44,188 nucleotides of DNA from Candidatus Nanoarchaeia archaeon (GTDB lineage: Archaea; Thermoproteota; Bathyarchaeia; Bathyarchaeales; Bathycorpusculaceae), in contig DATJPJ010000080.1 of assembly GCA_035506455.1 (NCBI GenBank), positions 1 to 44,188 on the forward strand. Reading direction: 5' to 3'. Under the pieces are notes generated by a model. It did not search any database and was not told the DNA's origin. It was given only the letters and a program-made list of their open reading frames with translations. Made by a program: the position numbers and the translations under genes. Each line of letters starts with the position of its first letter. Position 1 is the first letter of the stretch. Below are positions 986-35,930 of this stretch, piece after piece.

Positions 986-1850
986 GTTTTTTCGCCTGTG
1001 TTTTTAGTTGGTTTAACGCTGCCTTTCTCATAACTTCTATGGGTGCAGCTTTGCCTGTCCAGATTTCAAATGATGCGGCGCCTTGGTGAATAAGCATCTC
1101 CACGCCGCTGATGACTCTTGCGCCTGCTGCTTTCGCATCTTTGGTGAGCCTTGTTTCTAACGGGTTGTAGATGATGTCCATGACTGTGAGGTTTGGCTTG
1201 AACCAGGCGGGTTCGACTAAGGTTTGTTTCTCGTTGGGATGCATGCCTGCGCTGGTTGCGTTGATAAGTACATCCGCGTCGTTAAGGTTTTGTGTGATGT
1301 TGGTTTGAGAGAGCGTGGCGGTTGTGACTTTTGTCTGGAACTTTTTGGTCAGTATCTCTGCTAATTCGTTATTTTTTTCGGGTGTTCGGCTTAGAATAAC
1401 AAGTTCTTTTGCTTCTCGCGCAAGTGCTAACGCGATGGCTCGGGCTGCGCCTCCTGCTCCGAGCAATACGAGTTTCTTTTCTGATAGGTTGACTTTGTTC
1501 TCTTCGAGGGCTCGGTGAATGCCTGCGCCGTCGGTGCTGAAGCCTCGGAGTTTGCCGTTTTCGTTTTGTATGGTGTTGACTGAGTCTAGTAGTTTGGCTG
1601 TTTCGTCTATTTCGTCTAGGTATGGGATAACGGTGTTTTTGTTTGGCATGGTTACGTTTAGGCCTCTGATGCCTAGGCTGCGCATGCCTTGTATTGCGTG
1701 TTCTACTTGGGTTGTGGCTACTTTGAATGCTACAAAGAGTGCGTCGATGTTTAGTGCTTGAAAAGCTGCGTTTTGTATGGCGGGGCTTAAGGTGTGCTCT
1801 ATGGGGTCGCCTATGACTGCGTAAAGTTGTGTTTTTCCGGAGATTGTCAT
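975..1850 (-). CDS. aroE: shikimate 5-dehydrogenase
   Basis: The N-terminus LYAVIGDPIEHTLSPAIQNAAF and the Rossmann segment VLLGAGGAARAIALAL are classic AroE signatures. The gene is tightly packed between aroD and the shikimate kinase. Confidence 0.9.
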   Translation of the reverse strand: MTISGKTQLYAVIGDPIEHTLSPAIQNAAFQALNIDALFVAFKVATTQVEHAIQGMRSLGIRGLNVTMPNKNTVIPYLDEIDETAKLLDSVNTIQNENGKLRGFSTDGAGIHRALEENKVNLSEKKLVLLGAGGAARAIALALAREAKELVILSRTPEKNNELAEILTKKFQTKVTTATLSQTNITQNLNDADVLINATSAGMHPNEKQTLVEPAWFKPNLTVMDIIYNPLETRLTKDAKAAGARVISGVEMLIHQGAASFEIWTGKAAPIEVMRKAALNQLKTQAKKHDD

Positions 1851-1852
1851 CG

Positions 1853-2515
1853 TTATTTGATTTCTAGTAGTTCGTAGGCGGTGCGCATTTCCTGCACTGT
1901 CATCTGTCCCGGGGCGGTTTCACTGCCGTGTTCGAGGGCGGCAAACGTGAAGAAGCTTCCGAACATTGGTGATAGGAGTCTGCTGACTCTGCCTAATGCG
2001 CCCATGGCGAAGCATACGGGTTTTTTTCTGATGGGGGCGTCTTTGATGAATTGGAGTAGGGTGAGGTTGTCTTCGACTGTTTGGGCGGTTGTTACGATTT
2101 TGCATACGTCTGCGCCGCTTGAGACTTCTCTTTCGAGGATTCGGTTAAGTTCTTGGAGTGTGGGTGTTTTGTAGATGTCGTGTGAGGAGACTATGCATTT
2201 TGCGCCTGAGGTTTTGGCTTGGTTGACGAAGTTTTGAAGTTTTGGGCTTTGCAGTTCTGTATCTACGTATTTGAATCCTGATTTTGCGGCGGATAGTAGC
2301 ATGTTTTGTCGGTCTGCTTCTGGTCGTTTTGATCTGTCGGCAGCGATTAAGGGGGTTTTGATGTGTGCTGTTAGGTCTTCTAATCTCACGTTTCTCTGGA
2401 GGAGGTCGAGTCTGACTTCAACAAAGTCGACGTGGAGTTCTTCCGCTTTTTTGATTAGCGCTTGGGCTTCAGTGGTGGTCTTTGGCTGAAGCGAGGCGCA
2501 AATTCGGATGGTCAT
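1853..2515 (-). CDS. aroD: 3-dehydroquinate dehydratase, type I
   Basis: 220 aa. VDFVEVRLDLL is followed by a K-containing TIM-barrel pattern typical of type I DHQase. The start overlaps the upstream gene's stop by 4 nt. Confidence 0.85.
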   Translation of the reverse strand: MTIRICASLQPKTTTEAQALIKKAEELHVDFVEVRLDLLQRNVRLEDLTAHIKTPLIAADRSKRPEADRQNMLLSAAKSGFKYVDTELQSPKLQNFVNQAKTSGAKCIVSSHDIYKTPTLQELNRILEREVSSGADVCKIVTTAQTVEDNLTLLQFIKDAPIRKKPVCFAMGALGRVSRLLSPMFGSFFTFAALEHGSETAPGQMTVQEMRTAYELLEIK

Positions 2516-3546
2516 CGTTCAATCACCTTTTCTTCTGGCACTGATATGCCGAAGTGTCTGCCGCCTTTCGCGGTTATGTGTACTAAGACTTCATCATCTT
2601 TTTTTAGGGCTGTTACTGGGATGGATTCTTTTGGCGTGACTAGGCGGATGGTTTCTGCGTTTTGTAGGATAGTTTTGATTTTTCTGCCTTCCACTTCTGC
2701 TTCGATTAGTAGTAGTGGTCGCATTTCGGTTTTTGTTCGTCCTACATTTGTTTTGTGGACTTTGCCTTCGCGGTTGACTATGAGAACTTCGTCGCCTGCT
2801 TTTAGTTCGGAGAGGTATTGGGTGTTTTGTTGAGCGCCTAGTGTGTACATTGATAGTGGGCCGGCGTTTATTCGGAATGGTCGTGAAGCCACGTAGGGAT
2901 TCTCGTGGACTTCGGCTTCGACTAGGAATAAGCCTGCGCTTTGTGAGCCTACGAGCATGCCTTCGCCGACTTCCATGAGGTCGCATGTGTCGACGCAAAC
3001 TCGTGCGCCTGTGCCGATTTGGCTTATTGTTAAGATCTTGGCTGGGATGAGTGGGATTTTTGGGATTTGTCGTTTTACGACTGCTGCCGTTTTGGCGAGT
3101 TCGTCTGCGTTGCCGGTCTTGAGTAGGACGCCGTCTGTGCCTAATTCTAGTGTTTCTAGGACGAGTTGGGCGTCTTGGGCGTTTGTGACTTCGGCTATGA
3201 GTTTGCTTTTGCCGCTGATTCGGGCGATGAGGTTTTCTAGTGGTATGACTCGCCAGTCTAGGCAGTTTATGACTATGTAGTCGATGCCGAGTTCGGCGGC
3301 TTGAACTGCTGCGTTTTCGTCTTCTTTGCCTTGTATGGTGATTTTTAGGGCGGCCGGTTTTGTTTGGCGTTTCAGTTCTTTGATTGTTTCTTCGTCGAGT
3401 TTGTCGAGTAATGTGATTTCTTGTTTGCTCGACGTTATCGTTATTCTTTTTCTTTCTATGGTTGCGTTGCTGAGTTCTGTGGCAAGTCTGCTAAGTTTGT
3501 CTTTTTCTGCAGAGTTCTTGTCGATTTGAACCCAGAGTTCCTTCAA
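2512..3546 (-). CDS. 3-dehydroquinate synthase II (archaeal AroB', MJ1249 family)
   Basis: 344 aa, with length and sequence character matching the archaeal DHQ synthase II family. It sits between the ADH synthase and aroD, and both junctions overlap by 4 nt. Confidence 0.8.
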   Translation of the reverse strand: MKELWVQIDKNSAEKDKLSRLATELSNATIERKRITITSSKQEITLLDKLDEETIKELKRQTKPAALKITIQGKEDENAAVQAAELGIDYIVINCLDWRVIPLENLIARISGKSKLIAEVTNAQDAQLVLETLELGTDGVLLKTGNADELAKTAAVVKRQIPKIPLIPAKILTISQIGTGARVCVDTCDLMEVGEGMLVGSQSAGLFLVEAEVHENPYVASRPFRINAGPLSMYTLGAQQNTQYLSELKAGDEVLIVNREGKVHKTNVGRTKTEMRPLLLIEAEVEGRKIKTILQNAETIRLVTPKESIPVTALKKDDEVLVHITAKGGRHFGISVPEEKVIER

Positions 3547-4334
3547 GGGGCGCCACCTAGAATTTTCAGCGCTGCTTCCACGGATGCGCCGTCGTGAACG
3601 ATGGCGGATAGCGCTTTGATCATCACGGTTTGGTTTTCGTGTTGAAACACGTTTCGTCCAATTGATAGACCTGCGCTACCTGCCTTGAGTGCTTCTGTGG
3701 TCATTTCTAGTGTGTCTTTGGCGGTTTTGGCTTTTGGTCCGCCGGCGATGACGATGGGAACGGGGCAGCATTCAACGACGTTTTTGAAGGTGTTGATGTC
3801 GCCTGTGTAGTTGGTTTTGACGATGTCTGCTCCGAGTTCTGCGCCTAGTCGGGCTGCGTGTGCGACCACGTCGGGTGCGTGTTCGTTTGTTATTTTTGGT
3901 CCTCGGGGGTACATCATGGCTAGTAGGGGCATGCCGTATACTTCGCATTCGTCGGCTACTTTTCCTAGCATCGTTAACATTTTGTCTTCGTCTTGGGCGC
4001 CTACGTTGATGTGTACTGAGACTCCGTCTGCTCCTAGTCTGACGGCTTCTTGGATGCTGCAGACTTGGACTTTGTTGTTGGGGTTTGGGCTTAGGTTTGA
4101 GGCGCCTGAAAGCATGACTATTAGCCCTGTGTTTGAGCAGTTAACGTGTTTTGCGATGCCTTTGTGTACGAGGATAGCGTCGGCTTTTCCTTTGATGAGG
4201 TTGTTGATGGTTTGCTGCATGTTTTCGATGCCCATGCATGGTCCGATGGTGACTCCGTGGTCCATGGGTACGATGACTGTTCGGTTGTCTGATTGGAATA
4301 TTCTTGTTAGTCGTCGTTTTTTGCCTTGGTTCAT
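3543..4334 (-). CDS. 2-amino-3,7-dideoxy-D-threo-hept-6-ulosonate (ADH) synthase, AroA' (DhnA-type class I aldolase fold)
   Basis: 263 aa. RTVIVPMDHGVTIGP and VKTNYTG/IAGGPK motifs match the DhnA/MJ0400 aldolase family. It lies directly upstream of AroB'. Confidence 0.8.
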   Translation of the reverse strand: MNQGKKRRLTRIFQSDNRTVIVPMDHGVTIGPCMGIENMQQTINNLIKGKADAILVHKGIAKHVNCSNTGLIVMLSGASNLSPNPNNKVQVCSIQEAVRLGADGVSVHINVGAQDEDKMLTMLGKVADECEVYGMPLLAMMYPRGPKITNEHAPDVVAHAARLGAELGADIVKTNYTGDINTFKNVVECCPVPIVIAGGPKAKTAKDTLEMTTEALKAGSAGLSIGRNVFQHENQTVMIKALSAIVHDGASVEAALKILGGAP

Positions 4335-4336
4335 GT

Positions 4337-5581
4337 TTATTTGCTCCTTAATGATTTGTCGACGAGGTCGAGCGCTTTTTCGCGTTGGTTCCAGTCCACA
4401 AAAAGCAGGATGCTTGAGGTGATGGTTAGGATACCGCTGATGTTTATGCCGTTGAGCCTCAAGACTTCACTTATTTTTCCGATGATACCTTGCGTTTCCT
4501 CTAACCCGACTCCACGGATTTTGAGGAATGCCAGGTCTTTCTTGACGGCCATGGCTTGGGTTTCGGGGTTTTGCAAAAGGGTTTCGTGGATTTCGCCGAA
4601 GAGGGTGTCGTTTGGTTTTTCGGCTGACACGTAGAGGATTGCTGAGTCTGTGTTCATGGATAATCCTAGAAGTTCGGTGTGTGCTTTGGTTTTGGTTACT
4701 AGGTCCGTTATGATTTTTGGGTTGTCCGAGACGCGGTGTCCCACTATTGTGATTTCGTTCACGGGGTTTGGGTGGGCTATTTCTGCGCCTAGTTCTGTGG
4801 CTAGTGCGCCTGTGATTACTGTGCCTTCTTTGGTTAGGTCTCCGTGTGCGCTGTTTATGACTCGTACGTTCACGGATTTGGGTTTGTATTTTAGGGCTTT
4901 GCTGTGGATGAATTTTGCTCCTGAATCTGCTAAGCCGACGAGGGTGCTGACGTCGATTTCTTTGAGTCTTTTTGGGTTAGGGATTAGTTTGGGGTCGGCG
5001 GACATGATGCCGTCGGCGTCGGTTACCAGTACGACTTCGTCTGCGTTTAGTGCTTCGGCGAGGATGAATGCGGTTGTGTCGCTTCCGCCTCGTCCTAATG
5101 TGGTGACTTTGCCTTCTGTGGTTCTGCCTATGAATCCGGCGATTACTGGTACAATGCCTTTCTCGACGACGGGAAGCACGGACTGTTGGATGCGGTTTTT
5201 GCATTCTTGTCGCATTGGGTTTGCGTTGGAGAAGCATGCGTCTGTGATGATGGGCCAGTCCTCGTCGATTGGGTCGAAGTATCGTGACTCTACGCCGCTG
5301 GTTCTCAAGGCGGCGGAGAATATGCGAACGCTGGTGCGTTCCCCCATTGATAGGATGTCGTCTAGCTCGTGTTTTTCGAGTTTTCCGTTTGAGCTGTTTT
5401 TGGCGGTGCTCATGAGGACATCTGTGGTTTTGCCCATGGCTGAAACGACGACTGCTATGTGCGTGCCTTTCCTTGCTTCGTTAGCTACTGCAGCTACCGC
5501 TCTTGAAAGCCTTTCGTGATCGGCAAGGCTAGAACCGCCGAATTTAACCACGATTTTTTTGGAAGATTTTTCATTTTTCAT
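4337..5581 (-). CDS. aspartate kinase
   Basis: 414 aa. It has KIVVKFGGSSLAD at the N-terminus, the GRGGSDTTA motif and a C-terminal ACT-like region. Its stop lies 2 nt from the AroA' start. Confidence 0.9.
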   Translation of the reverse strand: MKNEKSSKKIVVKFGGSSLADHERLSRAVAAVANEARKGTHIAVVVSAMGKTTDVLMSTAKNSSNGKLEKHELDDILSMGERTSVRIFSAALRTSGVESRYFDPIDEDWPIITDACFSNANPMRQECKNRIQQSVLPVVEKGIVPVIAGFIGRTTEGKVTTLGRGGSDTTAFILAEALNADEVVLVTDADGIMSADPKLIPNPKRLKEIDVSTLVGLADSGAKFIHSKALKYKPKSVNVRVINSAHGDLTKEGTVITGALATELGAEIAHPNPVNEITIVGHRVSDNPKIITDLVTKTKAHTELLGLSMNTDSAILYVSAEKPNDTLFGEIHETLLQNPETQAMAVKKDLAFLKIRGVGLEETQGIIGKISEVLRLNGINISGILTITSSILLFVDWNQREKALDLVDKSLRSK

Positions 5582-5593
5582 AAGCCATCGCCC

Positions 5594-5629
5594 GCCCAGA
5601 ACTTTTCTCAGAATCCTCGTGTTCTGGGC
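5594..5629 (-). promoter_or_regulatory. leader hairpin, 9-bp stem GCCCAGAAC/GTTCTGGGC with an 18-nt loop, 12 nt upstream of the aspartate kinase ATG
   Basis: Perfect inverted repeat read directly at 5594-5602 and 5621-5629. Its function is unknown. Confidence 0.3.
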
Positions 5630-5871
5630 TTAGTTAAACGAATAATAAAAGCTGTATTCGAAGCTATAGAATCGTGAAAATGAGCCGTTGTCCTGAAGCC
5701 ACGAGTCCATCATTATTAGCCTCGAACCTGTCAATTCATGACATCGTTTTGAAATAAAAGCATTTCGGAGTGTGTGTCTTTAAACTTCTTTGAGGGATGT
5801 GGAATGGTTGGGCGGTTTTTCTCTTTTTTGTATGGATAAGGCGTCGTCGTTTAAACTAAATCGAGAGCGTT

Positions 5872-6555
5872 TTATTGGTTGTTTTGCTTGTTTCTGCCTC
5901 TGATAACTAAGGTTACTGCGATGGCGGCTATGATGACGCCGGACACTGCGGTTATCAGTAATGCGGTTTGAACCCAGTTGTTGCTTTGGCTGTTTGGTGT
6001 TGTTCCGGTTGATGTTGTGGGTGTGTAAACTGCGTAGATGCTGAGGTCTTCGCTGGAGTTTGTGGTTGCTTGGGTAAATGTGGTTGGTGGTTCTGAAGCT
6101 GATGAGGTGTAAATTGCTTTGCCAGTTACGTTTGATGCATAATAGTATGTGCCTGCGCTTGAAAGTGAAATTCCTAGCCAGTATGTTGTGTTCGGCTTTC
6201 CTACGTATGAGACGTCGAAGCTTACCCATCTGCCCGAAGTTCCATCTAAGTTGACTTCGCTGCTCTGCGTTAGCAGTGCATCTGGGGCTCCGTTGAGGTC
6301 GGAGTAGATTACTGCTTTGGCTGTGGTTCCCCCTGTTGTTAAGTAGACGTTGATTTGTGTTATGTTTCCCAGATCGGCTGGGCCTGTGAAATTGGAGACA
6401 AAAACGCCGCCGAAGGTTGATTGGTTTGAGTCTCCGATGCTAACGAGTCCGAAACTTGACGAAGTTGCGTATGTAGTTGGAAGTGCTGTAGTCAGCATTA
6501 GGAATGTCACTGCGAAATAGAGTATCATTGTGGTTTTTGTTTTGTTTAGTTTCAT
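5872..6555 (-). CDS. exported protein with signal peptide, T/S/P stalk and C-terminal TM anchor
   Basis: The track ORF starts at GTG 6564. The ATG at 6555 has GGTGA 5 nt upstream. The N-terminal hydrophobic signal ends in TTYA. The C-terminus is TPNSQSNNW, a hydrophobic helix, then RGRNKQNNQ. Confidence 0.75.
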   Translation of the reverse strand: MKLNKTKTTMILYFAVTFLMLTTALPTTYATSSSFGLVSIGDSNQSTFGGVFVSNFTGPADLGNITQINVYLTTGGTTAKAVIYSDLNGAPDALLTQSSEVNLDGTSGRWVSFDVSYVGKPNTTYWLGISLSSAGTYYYASNVTGKAIYTSSASEPPTTFTQATTNSSEDLSIYAVYTPTTSTGTTPNSQSNNWVQTALLITAVSGVIIAAIAVTLVIRGRNKQNNQ

Positions 6556-6723
6556 GGGGTTCACCGATTTAGCTTTCTTACGCGTTTTTGTGCTTTAAGT
6601 CTTTACGAAGCTTATGTGAGTTTTGTTGCTTTGAATGGTTGGATGAAAATCTTGCGATTGAGTGCTGTGTTGGGCGCTGGTTTTTTGGTGTCTCGCTCTG
6701 AAACTGATCCGTTGTTGATGTGT

Positions 6724-7434
6724 TCATTGTTTTTCGGGGTCAACTTTGATTATTTGCTGAATCTTGCCCCAAGTTCCGACGCATCCTTTGTAGAGTATAA
6801 GCGCGCCTTCCACGCCAACAATCGTTTTCGCTGTTGCTATGCCTTTTTCTATGGTTGCGTTCACGTCTTCGCCCTTGACTGTGTTTCCGACCGCTGTTGC
6901 TGCTGCGTCTGCGAGTCCTGCTTCTTTGCAGAAGACTGTTGCCGCTTCTGCGTCGCCAAAACTTAGTGCGTGGCTGAAGCGGCCTGAACTTGTGGCTAAG
7001 CCGATTGGGAATTCGGTGAGTCGAAAGCCAAATCGTTTCGATAATGGTTCATCGCCTGCTGCCACAGCTACATCGACGGGTACGTTTGAGATGGCTGAGA
7101 TTTCGCCTCCATCTTCGACGATTGCCACTTCACAACTTGCTAAAATCATGTCTTTTACGGCTAGGTCTGCTAAAACTCCGGCTACTGCTGCCATTGGTCC
7201 GACGTTGGCTTTTTCTGCTGCCTTCGCCATAAGTTTGCATACAAGTGGCTTTTGTGGGGTGGGTGTTGGTTTGAGGCTCCAGCCGAATTTTGGGTTTTTG
7301 TTAAGGTAGTTTTCGAGTAATGTGTTGTTGTGTTGTATTGATTCTTTGGCGGCTTTGAGGCCTTCTTGTTTGTCGCAGATTATGGTGCATTGGGATTGTT
7401 TGTAGGTGAAGGCTTCTTTGAATAATGGTTTCAT
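6724..7434 (-). CDS. UPF0280 / COG2122 ApbE-like protein (MA1715 family, linked to sulfide-dependent Cys/Hcy synthesis)
   Basis: The true start is the ATG at 7434 (MKPLFKEAF...). The 70-aa R/H/K-rich track extension overlaps the upstream gene and is rejected. AAVAGVLADLAV and ATSSG motifs fit UPF0280. Confidence 0.75.
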   Translation of the reverse strand: MKPLFKEAFTYKQSQCTIICDKQEGLKAAKESIQHNNTLLENYLNKNPKFGWSLKPTPTPQKPLVCKLMAKAAEKANVGPMAAVAGVLADLAVKDMILASCEVAIVEDGGEISAISNVPVDVAVAAGDEPLSKRFGFRLTEFPIGLATSSGRFSHALSFGDAEAATVFCKEAGLADAAATAVGNTVKGEDVNATIEKGIATAKTIVGVEGALILYKGCVGTWGKIQQIIKVDPEKQ

Positions 7435-7436
7435 TG

Positions 7437-7877
7437 TTAACTGCTCAGGGGACTTGGTTGGTGTGTGTGGCTGTGTGTTTCGTTTTGTTTTACTGATTTT
7501 ATTGCTCGGGCGGGGCATGCGTCTACGCATGCGCTGCATGTGCTTCCGACGCATTTTTCTTTGTTGAAATTGATGGAGAGGTCTTGGGTGGTTGTGATTG
7601 CTTCTACTGGGCAGAGTGTTATGCATGAGCCGCAGTTTATGCATTTTTCTGTGTCGACTTCGATTAGTTTTGGTAGGCTTACGGTGACGCCTTTTTTGCG
7701 GAATGCTTTTACGACTTCGTCTAGTTTTTCTGCTGGGACTTCGGCTAGGACTTCTCCGCCTTTGTTGTTGACTTGGGCGGTTATGATGTTGATGGGTACT
7801 TTTAGGTCGAGGATTATTTGTGAGACGAGGGGTTGCTCGACGGTTTTTTCTGTGAACCGTAGGAGTATTCTTACCAT
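7437..7877 (-). CDS. NIL-domain / 2x[4Fe-4S] ferredoxin fusion (MA1822 family)
   Basis: The internal ATG at 7877 gives MVRILLRFTEK..., a NIL domain. This is followed by CINCGSCITLCP and CVGSTCSACVDACP cluster motifs. It overlaps the upstream COG1900 gene's stop by 7 nt. Confidence 0.85.
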   Translation of the reverse strand: MVRILLRFTEKTVEQPLVSQIILDLKVPINIITAQVNNKGGEVLAEVPAEKLDEVVKAFRKKGVTVSLPKLIEVDTEKCINCGSCITLCPVEAITTTQDLSINFNKEKCVGSTCSACVDACPARAIKSVKQNETHSHTHQPSPLSS

Positions 7878-9529
7878 GCTTTTTTCCTTCCGAGCAGTTT
7901 GGAAACGTCTTCTGAGGTGACTATGCCTAGTACTTTCTTTTTTGCGTCTATTACTGGGAGTGCGGATATGTTGTGGGTTGCCATGCGTTTTGCTGCTGTT
8001 TCTAGGGGTTCGTCGGGTTTGGTTGTTATGACGTGTTTTGTCATGATGTCGGTTAGGGATTGTTTGCCCTGTGCCATTGCGCGTGTTACGTCCCATGAGG
8101 TTACGATGCCTGTGAGTGTGCCTGTGTCGTCGATTACGATTATGTGGTTTACTGATTTGGTGACTATGCGTTCGGCTATGGCTCGGACTTCTTCGTTTTC
8201 TTTGCATGTGACTGCTTTGTGCATGACGTTTGCGACGAATGGTGTGTCTTCTGTTTGTTTCATGGGTTTGAAAACGGTGTCTAGGGGTAGTCGTTCTACT
8301 GGGGCTGTTAGGAAGAATTCGCCTTGGTCAATCCACTGTTTTAAGGTGGCGGCGACGTTGCGGGCGTTCTTGAGGCTTGAAAGTGAGCTTACCTTGATTT
8401 TTTTGTCGCCTACTGTTATCGTGCCCGATTTGAGTTGTTTGTAGTTGACTTTGGCGAGTTTTGGGCGGTCTCTTCGTGGAACGCCGTAGTCGACTACGTT
8501 TGTGAATATTTCTTCGTCTCGGATGGCGGTTTTTTTTGCTATGCCTTCGTTTAGGATTGGGATTGGGATGCCTAGTCCGATGTATAGTGTTGTGCCGTAT
8601 CTGGTGAAGGTTGCGCCGCGGAGGAATTTTGTGTCCATTTTTTTGGCGTTGCCTCTGACCATTATTGTTCCGTTTTGGGTTTTTGCTTCGTGTTGGGTGC
8701 CTTCGCCTATGATGTAGCCTTGGGTTCCGCCTAGGAAGATTTTGGTTCCCATTCCGATGGTTTCGTAGTCGGGGTCGTTCATGAGGGGGTTTAGTTCGCC
8801 TGCGCCTGAGTATGTGGCGTTGCGCATTCCTGGGAGGAGTTTGCCCATGTATGTGTAGATTGTTTCGTCGCGGGTGTTGACCGCGCAATTGTATCGTTGG
8901 TAGCAGTTTCGGAAGTTTAACAGGTAAAATTGGTTTAAGTCTTCTTTTGTTAGGGTTGTTCTTAGTTGTGTTCGGGGGTAGCAGTCGGTGCCGTAAGCTG
9001 AAGCTTTTAGTTCAACTTCTTTGCCTGCTACAAGGTCCTCTATGAGGTGTCCTCCGCCGTACTCATAAGGTTGGGTTTCTGACATGGCGGTTGCGCCTAT
9101 GTAAAGGTCGACGGCGGCGCCTGGGTGGCAGATTGGTACGTTGTTCATGAATGCTTGGTCAATTTTCATGGGTGGGTCAGAGTGGCCTACGTTTATGATG
9201 GCGCCTGAGCTGCACATCGCTCCAAAAGTGCCTGTTGTGACCACGTCGACTTCTTTAAAAGCTACTTCGACGCCGCTGCTTTCTACTAGCCGTTTCATTT
9301 CTTCGGCTGTTAAGACTTGGGCGTCGCCTTTGCGGATTTTCTCGTTAATTTCTTCGATGGTTCGGGTTTTTTTCTGAGGGGTTAACGCTTTTTGTCCGAC
9401 CAGTTGCAACTGAAGGACGTTTTCGCGTATTAATAGGTTTTGAACTTTGGTAATGGGATTGGGTGAGTTGAGTGGGGTTTGGACCCCGGTCATTTGTCGC
9501 GACATTAATTTTTTCAATCGTCGCGACAA
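7871..9529 (-). CDS. homocysteine biosynthesis protein, COG1900 domain + tandem CBS (MA1821 family)
   Basis: The conserved N-terminus KTRTIEEINEKIRKGDAQVLTAEEMKRL begins about 45 codons into the ORF. A tandem CBS pair sits at the C-terminus. The 9529 start is a TTG. TTG 9409 and ATG 9493 are alternatives, and repeat copy A (9475-9540) overlaps the extension. The true start is therefore probably near 9409. Confidence 0.85.
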   Translation of the reverse strand: MSRRLKKLMSRQMTGVQTPLNSPNPITKVQNLLIRENVLQLQLVGQKALTPQKKTRTIEEINEKIRKGDAQVLTAEEMKRLVESSGVEVAFKEVDVVTTGTFGAMCSSGAIINVGHSDPPMKIDQAFMNNVPICHPGAAVDLYIGATAMSETQPYEYGGGHLIEDLVAGKEVELKASAYGTDCYPRTQLRTTLTKEDLNQFYLLNFRNCYQRYNCAVNTRDETIYTYMGKLLPGMRNATYSGAGELNPLMNDPDYETIGMGTKIFLGGTQGYIIGEGTQHEAKTQNGTIMVRGNAKKMDTKFLRGATFTRYGTTLYIGLGIPIPILNEGIAKKTAIRDEEIFTNVVDYGVPRRDRPKLAKVNYKQLKSGTITVGDKKIKVSSLSSLKNARNVAATLKQWIDQGEFFLTAPVERLPLDTVFKPMKQTEDTPFVANVMHKAVTCKENEEVRAIAERIVTKSVNHIIVIDDTGTLTGIVTSWDVTRAMAQGKQSLTDIMTKHVITTKPDEPLETAAKRMATHNISALPVIDAKKKVLGIVTSEDVSKLLGRKKAW

Positions 9530-9540
9530 TCGAGAAAAAC
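9475..9540. repeat. direct repeat copy A (about 66 nt) with internal 10-bp dyad TTGTCGCGAC/GTCGCGACAA
   Basis: Aligned by eye to 9968-10030. Shared blocks are GGTYTGGACCC(C)GGTCATTTGTC, ATTTTT, GACAATSG and GAAAAC. Confidence 0.7.
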
Positions 9541-9864
9541 CTTGTTTCTGGGATTAGTGCGGGTTGCTTTTCTTGGAAGCAGTTTATTAGCAATTGTCCT
9601 GCGATTGTCGCATTGTGCTAGATGTCGGCCTGAATTCTGTTGCAAAAGAGTGAAGAGGTTGTGGAAGACTTGTGCGTTTTTGCTCTTAACCAGGAAGCCG
9701 CTGAGCGGGGGTGGCTTTGGGGGAGGGTTGAGGGCGCCGCAGTTACCAGGAGGAGAGGGAGGGGGTAGTATGTTCGCAGCTTGGGTTTTTTTTAATGTTG
9801 AACATTGCGAAATCTTGTTTTTTGGGGTTGAAGCTGTTTGCTTTTTGGTAATGCAGCTTTTTGG

Positions 9865-9934
9865 CAAGTGTTCAAGCAATGTTCAATCCAATGTTCGCGA
9901 TGCAGAAAACCAATGTTCAGCCAATGTTCAACAT
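9865..9934. repeat. five direct (C)CAATGTTC(A) iterons at 11-12 bp phasing
   Basis: Copies start at 9865 (CAAGTGTTCA), 9876, 9888, 9910 and 9921. The last one merges into the palindrome ATGTTCAACAT. A related palindrome AATGTTGAACATT lies at 9794-9806. Confidence 0.7.
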
Positions 9935-9967
9935 GGGTGAGCCAGTCCTGGGTTAACGGGCCGGGAC

Positions 9968-10030
9968 GGGTCTGGACCCGGTCATTTGTCCCGTCAATGG
10001 ATTTTTGCATTGTGGGACAATGGTGAAAAC
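9968..10030. repeat. direct repeat copy B (about 63 nt) with internal dyad TTGTCCC/GGGACAA
   Basis: See copy A. The arms are at 9986-9992 and 10014-10020. Confidence 0.7.
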
Positions 10031-10203
10031 AGGTGTTTGGGGTCTGTAGTGGGTTGGTTTTTGTTAAAGCAGTCTGCCCATGATTGTCCACCATTGACCC
10101 AACTGGTCAATCCGTTCAGGGAGGTTTGACTATTTTTTTTGGGGGATGTGCAGAGTCTTGCTGAAAGAATTAGCTGATAGAAAGAAAGGGAGTTTTGGCT
10201 TGG

Positions 10204-10707
10204 TTAAGCCGTCTTCATGAACTTTGATTTGGGTGAGCCGCAGACGGGGCAGACGTCCGGAGCGGAGCCTTCCACAGTGTTTCCACATGTCTGGCAGACG
10301 TAGTAGTCGACCTTTACAATGTCTTTCTTGTTTTTCATTGCGTCTATAGCTTTCTGGTATAGTCCAGCGTGCACTTTCTCGACTTTGTTTGCGACGTCAA
10401 AGCTCCATGCAGCTTGTTTGTTGCCTTCTTTCTTAGCTACGTCGAGGAATTCAGGGTACATTTTCATAAACTCGAACGATTCGCCGCCAAACGCGGTGTT
10501 CAGGTTTTCCATTGTAGATTTGATTTCGCCTAAGGTTCTTAGATGGTTTAAGGCGTGGACGGTTTCGGCTTCTGCTGCTGCTCGAAAGAGCTTGGCAGCT
10601 TGTGTGAAGCCTTCTTCGTCGGCTTTCATTGCGAAAGCTAAGTATCGTCTGTTTGCTTGAGATTCTCCTGCGAATGCAGCTTTTAGGTTTTCATCGGTCT
10701 TGGTCAT
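10204..10707 (-). CDS. rbr: rubrerythrin
   Basis: 167 aa. It has a ferritin-like diiron domain (ENLKAAFAGESQANRRY, EAETVHA) and a C-terminal rubredoxin-like CQTC...CPVC. AGGAGA lies 9 nt upstream of the ATG. Confidence 0.9.
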   Translation of the reverse strand: MTKTDENLKAAFAGESQANRRYLAFAMKADEEGFTQAAKLFRAAAEAETVHALNHLRTLGEIKSTMENLNTAFGGESFEFMKMYPEFLDVAKKEGNKQAAWSFDVANKVEKVHAGLYQKAIDAMKNKKDIVKVDYYVCQTCGNTVEGSAPDVCPVCGSPKSKFMKTA

Positions 10708-10845
10708 ATAAAATTCTCCTGAAAAAGATTAACTTCGAAGTAAGTTATAAGTTATGCTTAAAATTTTGGGGGCTCACATTGAGGATACAGCAAAGGTATA
10801 TTAGGTTTAGTTTGCTTGTGAAAACATTGGTTTTTGGTGAGTAAA

Positions 10846-11487
10846 ATGGAGCATCTTACGATTAGTAAAAGCAAAACTGAAACTATAACTTCTTTTAGTC
10901 TTCCCAAGTTGCCTTATGACTACAAGGCTCTTGCGCCCTTCTTGTCTGAGGAACAGCTCAAGCTACATCACGATAAGCATCATTTGGGATACGTAAACGG
11001 TGCGAATGCTATCTTTGAAAAGTTGGACAAAGCCCGGAAAGAAAACATGGAAATCGACGCCAAAGCGACCTTCAAAGAGCTTTCGTTCCACATTGGCGGC
11101 CATATGTTGCATTCTGCGTTTTGGGATTGCATGGCACCTCCAGGAAAAGGTGGGGGTAAACCGAGTGGAGCCATTGCTGATGCAATTAACAAGGAGTTCG
11201 GAAGCTTTGATCGTTTCAAGATGGAGTTCTCTAAAACTGCTAACAGCGTTGAAGGCTCAGGTTGGGCAGTATTAGCAATGCAGGAATGTATTTCTAGGCC
11301 GCTGATTATGCAGGTTGAGAAACATAATGTAAACGTCTTTCCGGGTTTTCGCATTCTAATGGATTTGGACGTCTGGGAACACGCATATTATGTTGATTAC
11401 AAGAATGACCGCGCCAAGTTCGTTGAAGGGTTCTGGACTGTGGTCAACTGGGATTACGTCAATAAAGTTGCAACTATGATAAAGTAA
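10846..11487 (+). CDS. sod: Fe/Mn superoxide dismutase
   Basis: LPKLPYDYKALAPFLSEEQLKLHHDKHH and DVWEHAYY motifs are present. The track start at 10834 is a TTG. The ATG at 10846 has GGTGA 6 nt upstream. Confidence 0.9.
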   Translation: MEHLTISKSKTETITSFSLPKLPYDYKALAPFLSEEQLKLHHDKHHLGYVNGANAIFEKLDKARKENMEIDAKATFKELSFHIGGHMLHSAFWDCMAPPGKGGGKPSGAIADAINKEFGSFDRFKMEFSKTANSVEGSGWAVLAMQECISRPLIMQVEKHNVNVFPGFRILMDLDVWEHAYYVDYKNDRAKFVEGFWTVVNWDYVNKVATMIK

Positions 11488-11500
11488 GCCACGACAACAA

Positions 11501-11518
11501 TCTTTCTTTCTTTTTTTT
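11501..11518 (+). terminator. oligo-T tract (TCTTTCTTTCTTTTTTTT) downstream of sod
   Basis: A T8 run at 11511-11518 begins 24 nt after the sod stop. Archaeal termination typically uses oligo-T. Confidence 0.45.
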
Positions 11519-11916
11519 AAGCTAAATTCTTTGTTTCTGCGAAAAATATTTTTGCATGGATTTCTCCGACTTTGTAATTTTCATTTTAGCCGACAATGAA
11601 AAACGCCAAATTTTGCACGTGTGATAATTCAAACCTTCTTTTGTCGAGAGGCTCCTTACGTCAGTCTAAATTATTTTTAGAGAGCTGGGCAAGATTCCTG
11701 TCACATTTAAGTTTAGCTGGATGATCATCTGCGGAATTAGTCACTAATCAAATCTGCCTTACAAATATCTTCCACCAGTTTGGTGGTTCACTGATTCTTG
11801 CGACATTGAGGCTGGAGGCTGGGGCATTGGCAACTGGAGCGACGGGCAACTGGGTTAGATTGGGTTCATAGACGGATTCGTAACGATTTTGCAAGGGCAG
11901 GCTCCATCCATTTGGT

Positions 11917-13311
11917 TCACAAAGTAACGCGTTTGCGACTTTTTCTAATCAGATACAGTGAAACTGCAATTACAGTGGTTATTGCTGCTACGGTAATGGA
12001 AACATCTATTATTCCAAAGCCAGAGGCCGGTTTTTGACTTTGTGTTGGAGTCACTCCCGTCGCGAGTTGCAGGCTAAGCGATGAAACACCCGTGGTTGCC
12101 AGCTGCAGATTTTGCGCATCTATTTCGGTTACTCTATAAATCCCCCAACCCGCTGGAAAAGTCCATGTCCGAACTGCACTGCCTGTAGCGTTAACTTCAA
12201 CGATAACAGCACCTGTCTGATTAGTCTGGTCTTGTTGACCAAATTCGTGGTCTTGGTCTCCAAAAACTGCAAGTTTATCTCCATTGGGCAAAATATCTGC
12301 ACTTCCCCAATACTGAGTCCAATCTGATGTGGGTGATTCCCAACTCCAGATTTCACGAGCGGTCATGTTCTGCATGTCCAAAGAAATCTCCAGTATCCTG
12401 CTGTGTGCATCTAAGGGGTTGGTTTCATTGTGAAAATCATTGTCAAACATTATGAAGATCCCCGGGGCAACTTGGGCAGTGTCGTGGCTGTGGTACCATA
12501 AGCTGGAAACAACGTCGCCCTGTGAATTTACAAGTGTGAAGTTGCCAAACTGTCCGCATGCCCAAATTATGTTTCCTGATGTTTGGTTGATGGCGTAAAA
12601 TGTGTTTGTGTGGCGTACGTTCAGGTAGATGAGACTGTCGTTGTAGTCCCATTGAAGGGCGTTTGAGTGGGTGAAATCTACCACGGTTTGCCCATTTACT
12701 AATGAAGTGTCATTAAAGGGGTCTGCCTCCGTGAGAGGTATGTTGCCGTAGGTGTCCCAGCTCCAAAGTATACTTCCTGTCGCGTTCAGCTCGTCGACTG
12801 TGTCAAAGAGGTAGTTGGTTCCGTTGACGTTTCTCACGTAGTTCCGGAGTGCGAGGAAAGTGTTGTTAATAGGATTATAACAGAGGTCATGATGACCGTA
12901 AACGTTTGGGAAATCGGTTGTTTCGTTCGAAGTGAAGTTCCAGAAAAATGACTCGCTTGCCGCGCTATTGCCTTGGACCATAAGAGTGTCGGGTGCGATG
13001 TATTTGACGGAATTTGAGTAGCTCGCGGAGGAGCCGTTGGCTTCTATGAAATTAAGAGCTTGTGTGTTATCGGTTTGCATGACTACTAGGTAGCTTGCAA
13101 TCACCTGTTGCAAGTTGCTGGAGTTGTATTGGGACAAGCCAAAGGCTAGTTCTCCGTTCCAAGCGTTTCCAGTGGTATCAATTGTGCAGGGTACCACGAA
13201 CCCTGTGGAAGTCGCGGAATAGCTGATGGGAACAGTGGCTAGAATTATGAGACAGGCTATTAGCAACCCCGCTTTTAGAAAAATTGGCTTTCTGTTTCGT
13301 GATTCAAACAT
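11917..13311 (-). CDS. exported, C-terminally anchored beta-propeller-like protein, possibly arylsulfotransferase (ASST)-like
   Basis: 464 aa with an N-terminal signal/TM. His-containing motifs GHHDLCYNP, DFTHSNALQWD and WYHSHD recall ASST-family proteins, from memory and not searched. It has more than 12 N-x-S/T sequons. The C-terminus is a TM helix followed by RKSRKRVTL. Confidence 0.5.
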   Translation of the reverse strand: MFESRNRKPIFLKAGLLIACLIILATVPISYSATSTGFVVPCTIDTTGNAWNGELAFGLSQYNSSNLQQVIASYLVVMQTDNTQALNFIEANGSSASYSNSVKYIAPDTLMVQGNSAASESFFWNFTSNETTDFPNVYGHHDLCYNPINNTFLALRNYVRNVNGTNYLFDTVDELNATGSILWSWDTYGNIPLTEADPFNDTSLVNGQTVVDFTHSNALQWDYNDSLIYLNVRHTNTFYAINQTSGNIIWACGQFGNFTLVNSQGDVVSSLWYHSHDTAQVAPGIFIMFDNDFHNETNPLDAHSRILEISLDMQNMTAREIWSWESPTSDWTQYWGSADILPNGDKLAVFGDQDHEFGQQDQTNQTGAVIVEVNATGSAVRTWTFPAGWGIYRVTEIDAQNLQLATTGVSSLSLQLATGVTPTQSQKPASGFGIIDVSITVAAITTVIAVSLYLIRKSRKRVTL

Positions 13312-13878
13312 GTTCTGTAGCCTTTAGTAAACGATGATTTTCCTCGCGTTTCAGCACGCGCAGAATATTTAGTTGTTTACCAGAATTGTACCAGAATTTC
13401 GTTCGTATTAGTTGAATGGTCGCTTGAAGTATCCATTTTTTACGATTTTGTAATAGAACTCAGGAAAATTTTTGAGAACGACGTCAATTCTAAAGACAAA
13501 ACTAACGTGCAAGGAATGAGTAGCCTTGGTTTTTCCGTAATTACTTGTTTCCCCCTTCACGTTTCCAGGTAACTACATCGGAGTTTCCTGAAGGATACAT
13601 GGGGGCGTTTTGAGAACCGTTTGAGAATAAGTAAATCGATCCATTGAAAGACCTCTAACTGGTGTTTCCAAAACGTTAGAGAAGTGAATCAAGAAGAAAA
13701 TTCCCCAATGGGTAAGACCAAAGAAGATTGGCTAACTCCCCAAGTATATAAAATTTAAGTTTGAGGCTTGATACTCTTAAGAACCACTTATTTATCAAAA
13801 TTCGAACAGGTTTTTTGTGTCAAAAAAGTTTTACAAGCAATCTTTTAGGTGAGTTGAACCAGTAGTTACTTGATTGCT

Positions 13879-15450
13879 ATGAGCAAGAAAACATTCATAG
13901 CAGCAATAGTCATACTGTTCCTATTTTCAGTGGTAAGCCTTCCGCATTTTAGCGGGGCACAAGAACCAGTTATTAACATCAATGGTGATGGCACTGTCAC
14001 TCCTTCGACTGCTCCAATAAAGCAAACAGCAATCGGGTATGCTTTAACGGGAGATGTAAACGAGGACATAATTGTGGGCATCAGCAACATAGTTTTTGAC
14101 GGAAATGGCTACCACAGTATCAGGGGGGTTTTCTTGATCGGCGTGTCAAACGTCACGATCCAGAACTGTTCAATTTCAACGGACGGCGCAATTAGCTTGG
14201 ATGGGGCTTCGAACATTACCATTGTTAATAACACATTAACTGGTGCTGACTTTCCATGGTACGAGACGGGCACAATCTCAATTCACAACAGTTATCTAGT
14301 AAAAATTGAAGGAAACGTAATGGCGAGCGGTTGCAGCGGCATAATAATGATGGAAAGTCATGACAACTTGATTACTGAAAACAACATAACAGGCATGTCA
14401 ACTATTTGGCCACATGAAAGCGCAGCGATTATACTCTACAACTCTACAAACAACACCTTCTACCACAACAATTTCTTCAACAATGCTCAAGGAGTAACGG
14501 TTAACGGAATCAGTTCAGGCAACACCTACGACAACGGCTATCCCAACGGGGGAAACTACTGGAGCGACAACAGCGGAAAACAGTGGGGCGACCGCTATCC
14601 CCTTTCAAAGCCATTCACCACTACTTCATTATCTCCAACATTAACGCCCACACCATCTCCAAGTCCTTCTCCCAGTGCATCATCTTCTCCAAACATATCA
14701 CCCACACTTTCACCACCCGCGAACGCTGCAACCTCTTCCCCGATCGCCTTTCCGTCAAACACTCAATTCACGATACCAGCCCAAAACGCCACCATCATTT
14801 TTGCGCAAAATGGCACCTACGAAACCGCAAACCTTGACAATGGCACATGGATTTTCACTAACCTCTATCTAAACTCACCAAACGGCGATCTACTCGTAGA
14901 CAGCCCAACCATTGGCAATCTAAGAATAAACGCACAAGACAGCAACGTAACGATAGATTGCTTCGACCGACTCATATCCCCCTACCCAAACCACTACCAA
15001 GGCAACGCAACCTGGCAAACGCAAGGCTGGCTAAACTATACCGTCAACGGAACAGGAACGCAGACGATAAAAATCCAATTCAACTTAGTCGGTTCCACGA
15101 TTCCCTACCTAAACGGCGTCGGAACAGTAGATTGGCCCATATTCGTTTCGTTTTATGCAGGTGGCAACACGACAGAAACTGGCCTAAGCGGCGACAATTG
15201 GCCTCGACCGTATGGAATAGGGCTTACTGTGAACGGGGAAAGCTCGTACGTTGGTATCGGCTACCAGTGGGTAAACGCTCCCATTAATCCAGACCAACAA
15301 TCTCAGACGCTACCCCCTCTCCTAGATTATACCCCTACTCCCTCACCTTCCCCTCAGCAGAACGTTATACCTGCTTTAGTCATAGCAGCCGTTGTGGTTG
15401 CAGCGGTTGTGGTGGTATTGCTGATTTACTTCAGGAAGAGAAGAGGATAG
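13879..15450 (+). CDS. exported right-handed beta-helix (NosD/CASH-like) protein with P/T/S linkers and C-terminal TM anchor
   Basis: The ATG at 13879 is preferred because the track start 13870 is a TTG. Repeated motifs NVTIQNCSI, NITIVNNTL, IEGNVM, ITENNITG and FYHNNFFNN are typical of parallel beta-helix repeats. The linker is TPTPSPSPSPS and the tail is QQN-TM-RKRRG. Confidence 0.7.
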   Translation: MSKKTFIAAIVILFLFSVVSLPHFSGAQEPVININGDGTVTPSTAPIKQTAIGYALTGDVNEDIIVGISNIVFDGNGYHSIRGVFLIGVSNVTIQNCSISTDGAISLDGASNITIVNNTLTGADFPWYETGTISIHNSYLVKIEGNVMASGCSGIIMMESHDNLITENNITGMSTIWPHESAAIILYNSTNNTFYHNNFFNNAQGVTVNGISSGNTYDNGYPNGGNYWSDNSGKQWGDRYPLSKPFTTTSLSPTLTPTPSPSPSPSASSSPNISPTLSPPANAATSSPIAFPSNTQFTIPAQNATIIFAQNGTYETANLDNGTWIFTNLYLNSPNGDLLVDSPTIGNLRINAQDSNVTIDCFDRLISPYPNHYQGNATWQTQGWLNYTVNGTGTQTIKIQFNLVGSTIPYLNGVGTVDWPIFVSFYAGGNTTETGLSGDNWPRPYGIGLTVNGESSYVGIGYQWVNAPINPDQQSQTLPPLLDYTPTPSPSPQQNVIPALVIAAVVVAAVVVVLLIYFRKRRG

Positions 15451-15458
15451 GTTTGAGT

Positions 15459-16334
15459 ATGAAAACGTCCATGGCAGTCATCGTAATCTTCATTTCATTG
15501 TTTTTTGCGATTGGTATGCATTTTCAGGTGGCAAAAGGAAATCCAACGGGTTTTGGTCCACCAAATCCCACTCAACCTGTTGAAGACCCCCCAACAATTG
15601 ATATTCAGTTTCCAGAAAACATAACCTATTATGGGAGTATTGTGCCGCTAAACGTTACTGTTACTCAGCCTATTTCGTGGTACGTGGAACAGTACCCCAG
15701 ACAACTAGCACCGCTTAACACTATCAAATCGGTAAACTGTGTCATTGACGGGCAACAATTTGTCTTATGGAATGGGACACTCGTTAATCAAGGCCTTAAT
15801 CAAGCCATTAGCTTTGACCTTCCCAGTGCGTGTCAGTTTGCGGCTTTAATAGAAGCTGGCTCAGGAGAGCATACATTGGAGGTAGATGTAGGCACGCAAG
15901 TCTTGTACTATCCGAGGGCAGGTTTCTTTCCAAGTTCCTTAACCATGAATGCTTCTCAAAATGTCACTTTCACAGTGGAAACAAGTCTAGCTGTTTCTGA
16001 AACAACGGTATCTTCCATAGAGCCACCAACTCCAACTTCGAATTACTTACCTTTAGTAATGGTGACACCCACGCCAAATCCAGGACTTACTCTATCTCCA
16101 TCAGCTACTCATTCTCCAAACCCATCTCCAACTTCAACTGTAAACCTAATCATAACTCCTTCACCTTCTCCAACACAGCAACCAATACCAGAACCCAGTG
16201 CAACACCAAATAATGCCCAAGAAAACTTTACGTCAACGCTATTCATAACTGCCTTATTGGTTGCTTTAGTCATTGCATTGCTGGTCTACTTGAGGAAAAA
16301 GGGGAAGATAATGTGGATTAGAATGCATTCGTAG
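15459..16334 (+). CDS. exported protein with P/T/S stalk and C-terminal TM anchor
   Basis: The ATG at 15459 is preferred because the track start 15453 is a TTG. It has a signal peptide, the stalk PTPNPGLTLSPSATHSPNPSPTS...TPSPSPTQQP, then QEN-TM-RKKGK. It begins 9 nt after the preceding gene. Confidence 0.7.
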   Translation: MKTSMAVIVIFISLFFAIGMHFQVAKGNPTGFGPPNPTQPVEDPPTIDIQFPENITYYGSIVPLNVTVTQPISWYVEQYPRQLAPLNTIKSVNCVIDGQQFVLWNGTLVNQGLNQAISFDLPSACQFAALIEAGSGEHTLEVDVGTQVLYYPRAGFFPSSLTMNASQNVTFTVETSLAVSETTVSSIEPPTPTSNYLPLVMVTPTPNPGLTLSPSATHSPNPSPTSTVNLIITPSPSPTQQPIPEPSATPNNAQENFTSTLFITALLVALVIALLVYLRKKGKIMWIRMHS

Positions 16335-16376
16335 TTGCAAAAATAGCATTATTAGTTTTGAGGAAAGAGAAGCCGC

Positions 16377-16694: not shown

Positions 16695-16784
16695 TTTCTA
16701 GTCGGCGACCCGGGAATATTAGCTTTTTGCTGTTTGCTTGCCAAAAAAGTTTTGAGCACATATGTGGTGTATAGTTTGGTTTGT

Positions 16785-17567: not shown

Positions 17568-17649
17568 CTTCTGATGCTTTCTTTTCTTTCTTCACGTAAT
17601 ACTCTTTCTTTTTCTTTTCTTCTTCTGCCTTCTTTTTAGCTGCAGCCAT
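17554..17649 (-). CDS. candidate 31-aa lysine-rich micro-protein (MAAAKKKAEEEKKKKEYYVKKEKKASEVKKK)
   Basis: Hand-translated. GGTGAT lies 4 nt upstream of the ATG at 17649. It overlaps the priS 3' end by 14 nt. It is below the ORF-track size cut-off and is low-complexity, so it could be chance. Confidence 0.25.
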   Translation of the reverse strand: MAAAKKKAEEEKKKKEYYVKKEKKASEVKKK

Positions 17650-35913: not shown

Positions 35914-35930
35914 CTGGAGAAGAAACAAAG

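Follow-up and report, generated by a model that had tools for sequence, protein, structure and literature searches.

Among mosaic, self-complementary intergenic repeats, the closest described systems to the one considered here are the BOX elements of Streptococcus pneumoniae, organized as boxA-boxB(n)-boxC, and the repetitive extragenic palindrome and bacterial interspersed mosaic element (REP/BIME) clusters of enterobacteria. These are modular, non-coding sequences of 100-300 nt with strong self-complementarity, in which one module occurs in a variable number of short tandem copies. They are intergenic, near promoters or 3′ ends, vary in number or presence between close relatives, and are thought to act in transcripts, on stability or termination, or as protein-binding sites. 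Units that resemble them in these respects occur in a 44,188-nucleotide stretch of archaeal DNA (contig DATJPJ010000080.1, assigned to the Bathyarchaeia; hereafter the window), where they fill the 790-nt spacer between a rubrerythrin gene and the gene for COG1900, a protein of homocysteine synthesis, both on the minus strand. The units represent a new clade-specific variety of small structured intergenic repeat, which is real, larger than an earlier note on this DNA had recognized, and statistically supported as selected.

The earlier note had reported two direct repeats of about 65 nt, copies A and B. Its quoted sequences and coordinates are exact for both. The dyad in A is recovered as a perfect 10-nt inverted repeat, TTGTCGCGAC (9494-9503) with GTCGCGACAA (9520-9529), that in B is present as TTGTCCC (9986-9992) with GGGACAA (10014-10020), and the double change between them, G to C in the left arm and C to G in the right, is real. 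Number and extent had been underestimated. Pairwise alignment carries the A-B homology to approximately 145 nt, the two copies being the 5′ halves of longer units, and a third unit, C (approximately 9765-9934), lies between them. The similarity of A to B, 71.8% over 110 nt, is far beyond chance (E = 5e-8 against the whole window, 9e-11 within the region), and a repeat search of the window recovers the same direct repeat. Self-comparison of the region matches 9784-9856 of C to 9999-10072 of B (E = 1.6e-6) and 9810-9871 of C to 9537-9597 of A (E = 1e-4). The result is an array of three diverged units in the order B-C-A, read in the direction of the flanking genes.

The layout is described in the orientation of the plus strand of the window. 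Each unit comprises a 5′ block, a left arm, a run of five to eight T, a central segment that closes with ACAATGG or a variant of it, then GAAAAC, a core of about 55 nt kept as GTTTCTGGGGTT..GGTTGCTTTT..AAAGCAG, and a tail. The tail consists of two to five direct copies of a 7-11-nt word placed 9-13 nt apart, with one inverted copy after them in some units; tandem micro-arrays of period 11-12 nt were the only finds of Tandem Repeats Finder (TRF). The components are as follows.

9475-9620, unit A, nearest to the COG1900 promoter (nhmmer 9480-9625, E = 8e-30; covariance model (CM) 9491-9616, 104 bits).
9475-9493, 5′ block of unit A; 9494-9503, left arm TTGTCGCGAC; 9509-9514, T6 run.
9520-9532, central arm of unit A, GTCGCGACAATCG; 9532-9540, GAGAAAAAC; about 9541-9590, core.
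9592-9599, 9602-9611 and 9611-9618, tail words of unit A, AATTGTCC, CGATTGTCGC and CATTGTGC.
9621-9764, spacer between C and A, G/T-rich on the plus strand and without homology to the units.
9765-9934, unit C, the middle and most diverged unit (nhmmer 9759-9914, E = 1e-26; CM 9771-9890, 90 bits).
9770-9775, left arm of unit C, ATGTTC; 9786-9793, T8 run; 9794-9808, central palindrome AATGTTGAACATTGC.
About 9809-9862, core of unit C; 9864-9934, tail of five (C)AATGTTCA words with an 11-12-nt period.
9968-10112, unit B, beside the rubrerythrin stop codon (nhmmer 9974-10112, E = 1e-33; CM 9983-10106, 116 bits).
9968-9985, 5′ block of unit B; 9986-9992, left arm TTGTCCC, with GTCAATG at 9993-9999; 10002-10006, T5 run.
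10008-10013, CATTGT of unit B; 10014-10025, central arm GGGACAATGGTG; 10025-10030, GAAAAC; about 10031-10080, core.
10082-10089 and 10089-10101, tail of unit B, GATTGTCC and CACCATTGACCCA; 10104-10110, inverted copy GGTCAAT.

Every unit is built round a single 7-11-nt word whose flanks vary about an (A/T)TTG(T/A) centre; unit A has ATTGTCGC, unit B ATTGTCC/ATTGACC and unit C AATGTTCA. The word list across adjacent units also includes CATTGTGC and CATTGATG, and about 4 nt are common to all words. The word or its complement occurs in the left arm, in the central segment just before GAAAAC, and two to five times in tandem past the core. Two helices can be drawn. In H1 the central segment pairs with the left arm (the dyad of the earlier note) and the conserved T/A run forms the loop. 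In H2, which closes the conserved core, it pairs with a tail word 63-69 nt downstream, and this is so in every unit: in A, 9523-9532 with 9602-9611 (10 of 10 positions; GCGACAATCG / CGATTGTCGC); in B, 10013-10025 with 10089-10101 (12 of 13; TGGGACAATGGTG / CACCATTGaCCCA); in C (TTGAACATTGC / GCAATGTTCAA), 9798-9808 with 9876-9886 (11 of 11) and also 9795-9807 with 9922-9934 (13 of 13). Since H1 and H2 use the same central bases they are mutually exclusive. A self-palindrome, GTCGCGAC, inside each arm of A makes these arms both direct and inverted repeats.

Is this complementarity selected? The permutation set comprised eight units from four genome contexts, with central segments scored, alignment-free, against the tails and left arms of their own and the other units. 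The cognate centre-tail score is 63 (permutation mean 43.4) and the cognate centre-left score 43 (mean 29.9), each higher than in any other of the 5040 permutations. In a plain MAFFT alignment, the upper part of H1 together with H2 pairs in 75.7% of cells, against a shuffle mean of 69.1% with 4 of 500 shuffles as high, and H1 in 85.7%, against 79.4% with 5 of 500; slid controls for the two sets give 22-61% pairing. One H2 position takes G-C, A-U and C-G. A further comparison uses the unit of contig L085, which was found by scanning metagenomes with the shared 5′ block and is 88% identical to B over 148 nt. Only one of 54 word positions differs between the two, compared with 18 of 94 positions elsewhere (Fisher P = 0.0012). 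On the strength of this word conservation, the cognate permutations and the pairing results, the words are under constraint: they experience purifying selection, and from unit to unit the word changes without loss of complementarity.

The earlier note had read covariation from a single compensatory change. That is weak evidence alone, but it gained support once more units were compared. Neutral tandem segmental duplication of intergenic DNA, with dyads and covariation a coincidence, could appeal only to that one G/C swap and to the way in which G/T-rich, low-complexity sequence inflates weak self-matches. Against it stand the permutation tests, the slid controls and the word conservation, together with homologous units of the same architecture but with other words in other genomes, and we regard it as highly improbable. 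The verdict of the earlier note, a selected hairpin RNA or dimer-binding site and not a random duplication, therefore holds in its last part, the cognate arrangement being the best of 5040 permutations twice over. The choice it offered is another matter. Neither a promoter nor an Rfam family nor one conserved fold came to light to decide between a hairpin RNA and a dimer site, and the units carry more word copies than a simple hairpin needs.

The relation of unit A to its relatives illustrates how words are exchanged. Its core is nearest to that of the proximal unit in L091, a relative with a 92%-identical COG1900 (0.76), which suggests orthology, yet the words are entirely different. Unit A is a mosaic, with a 5′ block as in B and words like neither B nor L091. 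Such pairs would constitute a natural experiment in which the core is kept and the word replaced wholesale between orthologous units, yet all copies within a unit stay matched.

A search of relatives for further copies, proposed in the earlier note, found them in several contigs and loci of one narrow Bathyarchaeia clade. The L085 unit precedes a zinc-ribbon promoter by approximately 150 nt. The unit of L084, from the same metagenome scan, has only the 5′ block and left arm in common with B and carries its own words; a 23S rRNA gene has its TATA box approximately 160 nt downstream of this unit. Further copies lie on contigs that encode the closest COG1900 proteins. In L086 and L087 (COG1900 94% identical in amino acid sequence) there are three units, inverted relative to COG1900 and facing a TfoX_N gene, and in L091-93 (92%) a single unit oriented as in the window. 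No unit was detected in L089/L090 (91%) or L095 (88%), at 80 loci of GTDB Bathyarchaeia, around COG1900 and elsewhere (blastn, nhmmer and CM), at the zinc-ribbon locus of the L086 organism (nhmmer, CM), or in another 20 kb. The zinc-ribbon locus of L109-111, unlike that of L085, is also without a unit. A borderline CM match in L033 falls inside a coding region and is not a member. On these searches the units occur only in relatives with a COG1900 at least 92% identical, among which their number, orientation and locus differ. Such patchy presence among close relatives, with absence elsewhere, indicates a family that is young or fast-evolving, clade-restricted, mosaic, and both gained and lost. 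Copies are 53-88% identical overall and 53-81% in the core. A nearly identical 5′ block of about 25-40 nt, GGACCC(C)GGTCATTTGTCSCG, is common to A, B, L085 and L084, which are otherwise diverged. The distance from unit to promoter ranges from 45 to 300 nt.

This distribution raises the question of a selfish element of MITE (miniature inverted-repeat transposable element), REP or BOX type, a non-autonomous hairpin repeat that inserts intergenically, decays and has no host function, its palindromes perfected by template switching. The varying counts among close relatives (three in the window, one in L091-93, three inverted in L086/87, none in L089/90 or L095), the occupied and empty zinc-ribbon loci of L085 and L109-111, the 5′ block shared by four otherwise diverged copies, the mosaic relationships, and assemblies that break inside the array are all as expected of such an element. 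Against it, neither terminal inverted repeats bounding the units nor a target-site duplication was found, and the 44 kb encode no transposase, integrase, reverse transcriptase or HUH protein. Copy density is low, with one cluster in 44 kb and none in another 20 kb, and the copies are 53-88% identical rather than near-identical. Both the purifying selection on the words and the conservation of the core between species speak for a function. We judge a purely selfish element unlikely.

The assembly breaks can be described more closely. Contig L081, from the same strain, matches the window without a difference between 14707 and 9764, whereas the 84 nt with which it ends hold 16 mismatches and two indels; this divergent end (L081 4945-5029, window 9680-9763) reflects either strain polymorphism or an assembly break inside the array. 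Two other contigs with an identical rubrerythrin likewise end near the array, at which metagenome assemblies are likely to break.

A second module of the same design lies next to units or upstream of TfoX_N (L086 2200-2300, L091 1030-1150 and L089 2225-2250). Its word, (A)TAGTT(A/G)TAACTAT, of 12-14 nt and a perfect palindrome in L089, occurs once inverted and once or twice direct around about 45 nt, and the module is probably an operator. The segment with TfoX_N and the unit array in L086 (1600-2870) is inverted relative to L089/L090 (L089 2200-3000), and TfoX_N is absent from L091 and from the window; by this comparison the upstream region is a hot spot of rearrangement. In L084 an open reading frame (ORF) of 92 residues with no Pfam match (1046-1324) directly follows the unit tail in the plus orientation of the unit, and a tRNA (1416-1489) comes after it.

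The position of the array relative to COG1900 depends on where that gene begins. The relevant features are these.

7871-9412, minus strand: gene for COG1900/HcyBio with CBS domains (PF01837, PF00571).
9423-9440, minus strand: COG1900 promoter, between unit A and the gene, with the transcription factor B recognition element (BRE) CAAAACC and the palindromic TATA box TATTAATA.
10204-10707, minus strand: rubrerythrin gene (PF02915, PF21349); the array begins approximately 90 nt past its stop codon.

The BRE/TATA combination CAAAACC-TATTAATA is common to COG1900 orthologues of other species, including L002-L010, and window 9446-9386 is 86-87% identical to L086-L090. The best relatives of the COG1900 protein are all from Bathyarchaeia, and homologues align only from about residue 10 of the reading that starts at TTG 9412. 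Because of the conserved promoter between unit A and the gene, and of the point at which homologues begin to align, the ORF extension 9413-9529 is non-coding, with the real start between 9412 (TTG) and 9386 (TTA). The earlier note had reached the first of these conclusions from the presence of copy A inside the extension; the conclusion stands, but the evidence for it is the promoter and not the repeat. In gene calling, the COG1900 ORF should not be carried on through unit A. As the units lie upstream of the promoter they do not form the 5′ leader of COG1900, and a riboswitch or attenuator in its 5′ untranslated region (UTR) was rejected on that ground and because orthologues elsewhere keep the promoter without units. 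A duplicated COG1900 5′ end, or pseudogene, was also discounted, there being only weak matches of 17-28 nt.

The start codon itself may be unusual. In some species TTG stands 8-9 nt beyond a conserved GGAGG, where other species have CTC or TTA (the window has TTA, 9388-9386), and six COG1900 orthologues have no ATG, GTG or TTG between an in-frame stop and the conserved TIEEIN (comparison of window 9386-9412, minus strand, with L002, L008, L010, L012, L013 and L086 around 4000/2900). This suggests a non-canonical initiation codon. The TATA box (9423-9430) is a perfect palindrome whose other side faces the unit array in L086, where divergent transcription from it is conceivable.

From which strand might the array be read? 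Oligo-T runs (five or more T) act as archaeal terminators. Between 9413 and 10203 there are nine on the plus strand and one on the minus strand. The minus strand of the array is C/A-rich, like the neighbouring coding strands. Over window positions 1-20000 the coding strands are strikingly rich in C and A (COG1900 has A 37%, C 29%, G 19%, T 14.5%); a change in gene orientation reverses the skew, and hardly any oligo-T runs occur on sense strands. In the minus-strand sense the arrays all point at the 5′ end of the adjacent gene, whether COG1900, TfoX_N, zinc-ribbon or 23S rRNA. Given the T-run counts, the composition and this common direction, a long transcript is plausible only on the minus strand.

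We tentatively favour, at somewhat less than an even chance, a fold-back nucleic-acid element of a mosaic family that would most likely act in minus-strand transcripts. A unit would fold in RNA read co-directionally with rubrerythrin and COG1900, its central segment pairing either leftward in H1 or with a tail word in H2 to give a bistable or protective structure. It might serve as an insulator, stabilizer or read-through control between neighbouring transcription units. Units would spread and turn over by duplication, conversion and relocation. The fold-back element and a selfish MITE/REP-like one are not mutually exclusive. A nucleic-acid fold is preferred since the words differ in adjacent units, the dyad spacing varies and the outer dyad positions covary.

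A number of observations count against this interpretation. Only eight or nine units are known and several are related by descent, so covariation events are few, and the orientation rule rests on about three independent contexts. No canonical BRE/TATA was seen ahead of B or C, leaving an independent small RNA gene unsupported. Minimum free energy folds differ: A, B and L085 are predicted to form H1, C and the first L086 unit (L086_1) H2, and in L086_2 and L091 the left arm pairs with the tail. The z-scores of the folds, between -1 and -4, are modest and much the same for either strand, and a putative hairpin inside the core has, on reading the alignment, uncompensated changes. Finally, two to five redundant, perfectly conserved tail words at 9-13 nt exceed what one helix needs and resemble binding-site arrays.

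Database searches gave no RNA identity for the units. At the gathering threshold of Rfam a tRNA-Phe (43373-43449) alone passes in the window; a permissive scan of 9380-10260 returned three chance-level matches (E 2.6-8.4), and none was obtained in the units of L084-L091. ARAGORN reported nothing in the units. C/D-box and H/ACA RNAs were dismissed, the boxes being absent by eye save for a chance UGAUGA in the unit with the word CATTGATG. The unit words do not occur elsewhere in the window, as possible trans targets, beyond chance.

The same tail words lead to a different proposal, in which the units are cis-regulatory duplex DNA. The words would be sites for a multimeric DNA-binding protein, with ribbon-helix-helix-, Lrp- or Fur-like logic, placed direct and inverted round an A/T tract upstream of promoters, and the word flanks would be kept alike by local slippage and conversion and not by selection for pairing. 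Two to five tandem words at 9-13 bp, roughly one helical turn, are in keeping with this. The central and left elements are themselves palindromes, and the upper-H1 dyad, NNNCAATG-N8-CATTGNNN, keeps its spacer at 8 nt in B, L085, L086_2 and L091. B and L085 share perfectly conserved words, every unit has a bona fide promoter downstream of it, that of rRNA included, and neither RNA family, promoter nor single conserved fold was found for the units. On the other hand, adjacent units use different words with only about 4 nt in common, the other dyads vary in spacing and the tail spacing is irregular. The promoter distance of 45-300 nt and the reversed orientation to COG1900 in L086 are unfavourable, no regulator gene travels with the units (Pfam), and the outer dyad positions covary, which is needless for a protein that reads the centre only. 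With dyad spacings of 1-8 nt within units and differing words in adjacent ones, a single sequence-specific dimeric protein is hard to reconcile with the array. We consider protein sites in duplex DNA rather unlikely, though the next most probable reading after the fold-back element.

A plus-strand small ORF or leader peptide starting at the ATG of ACAATGG (MVKTGVWGL* in B) and regulated by the alternative helices was also considered. ACA-ATG-G followed by (G/C)NG-AAA-AC is kept in B, L085, L086_1, L086_2 and L091, and on reading by hand some differences between A and L091 are synonymous or in-frame. There is, however, no ATG in A and C, stop positions vary (8-29 codons), and single-nucleotide indels separate B from A and from L085. 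A plus-strand T5-8 terminator run stands just upstream with another inside the core, and there is no Shine-Dalgarno-like motif. We regard a leader peptide as highly improbable. Coding on either strand was rejected, since frame-breaking single-base indels separate B from both L085 and A and since the minus strand of unit A contains stop codons.

A bolder version of the fold-back element is conceivable but improbable. The units might form a new class of archaeal structured RNA, or single-stranded DNA, module in which a core of about 55 nt is presented by hypervariable, co-evolving 'address' helices. If so, a private word present in up to seven copies per unit would provide a programmable, bistable scaffold able to recognize itself or matching sequences in a guide-like or decoy-like manner, and copies of it could arise at further promoters, with that of an rRNA gene among them.

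Next to nothing has been learned about non-coding elements in the Bathyarchaeia, an abundant group without cultivated members. Should the units act as RNA, they would provide a riboregulator or insulator specific to this lineage, with a multi-partner switch of an unusual kind; should they act as DNA, they would represent an upstream regulatory architecture new to archaea.

The neighbouring genes are ordinary chromosomal ones: shikimate pathway, aspartate kinase, HcyBio with CBS, rubrerythrin, iron superoxide dismutase (Fe-SOD), peroxiredoxin and flavodoxins. The window is rich in oxidative-stress and redox genes (10204-11487, 17741-19153, 21428-21943, 26147-26701 and 35146-38290), which encode rubrerythrin, Fe-SOD, disulfide oxidoreductase, peroxiredoxin, nitroreductase and flavodoxins, and a FilR1-like winged helix-turn-helix regulator is encoded at 33966-34769. 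Five tandem 33-nt repeats (31233-31414) inside the minus-strand ORF 31220-31450 (76 residues) would specify an 11-residue repeat protein; the low-GC (36-40%) stretch around them, 30818-32912, has no ORF of at least 100 residues.

How do the units compare with known systems? The earlier note had stated that CRISPR, insertion sequence (IS) and MITE models do not fit cleanly, and tests of their defining features bear this out. Units of approximately 145 nt with a core 53-81% identical, and no regular short repeat other than the micro-arrays seen by TRF, are not a CRISPR array. The unit ends, set by comparing A, B, L085 and L084 and not from empty sites, which do not align at base resolution, have neither terminal inverted repeats nor flanking direct duplications, and the earlier note's remark that no transposase is nearby extends to the whole window, in which Pfam searches find no transposase, integrase, reverse transcriptase, HUH or Rep protein. 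A diversity-generating retroelement was excluded as A/B mismatches involve all bases and are not adenine-specific, and there is no reverse transcriptase in the window. Integron attC sites and att-site remnants were set aside given the lack of an integrase and of R′/R′′ cores, and a replication origin given the lack of a GC-skew inflection and of orc1/cdc6 next door. Scans of viral contigs with the core and 5′-block patterns, and BLAST of the units against plasmids and phages, gave chance matches or nothing, and no Bathyarchaeia repeats or non-coding RNAs were found described in the literature searched.

MITEs such as Sulfolobus SM and Neisseria Correia elements are, in common with the units, small, non-coding, fold-back sequences, gained and lost between close relatives and present upstream of unrelated genes. 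The units differ in having no terminal inverted repeats at their ends, no target-site duplication and no cognate IS in the window, and in copies that are only 53-88% identical. Iteron and operator arrays (plasmid and ssDNA-virus origins, geminivirus iterons, parC, and Rep iterons with the inverted repeat at the rep promoter) share tandem words about one helical turn apart, an inverted copy beside an A/T tract, and lineage-specific words next to conserved sequence. An iteron origin, Rep operator or partition site was nevertheless rejected, as words differ between adjacent units and there is no Rep or Par gene; the context is chromosomal, the 9-13 nt spacing irregular, and no viral or plasmid similarity is seen. 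Attenuator and riboswitch platforms resemble the units in a central strand that pairs upstream (H1) or downstream (H2) with covarying partners. The units, however, are upstream of a promoter and not in a 5′ UTR, have no aptamer or Rfam match and no hairpin-plus-U-tract logic, and offer several redundant downstream partners.

The units behave most like the mosaic self-complementary intergenic repeats BOX and REP/BIME, while being members of none of the systems compared. They consist of modules with a variable tail of two to five words, are self-complementary, and occur at several loci (COG1900/TfoX, zinc-ribbon and 23S rRNA). They depart from BOX and REP/BIME in a low known copy number, an archaeal host, no RAYT-type or other mobilizing gene seen, and no sequence similarity. 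BOX and REP/BIME repeat one family consensus in every copy, whereas here the word varies with the unit, and constancy is confined to complementarity and core. This private, multi-copy word round a shared core is the distinctive feature of the units.

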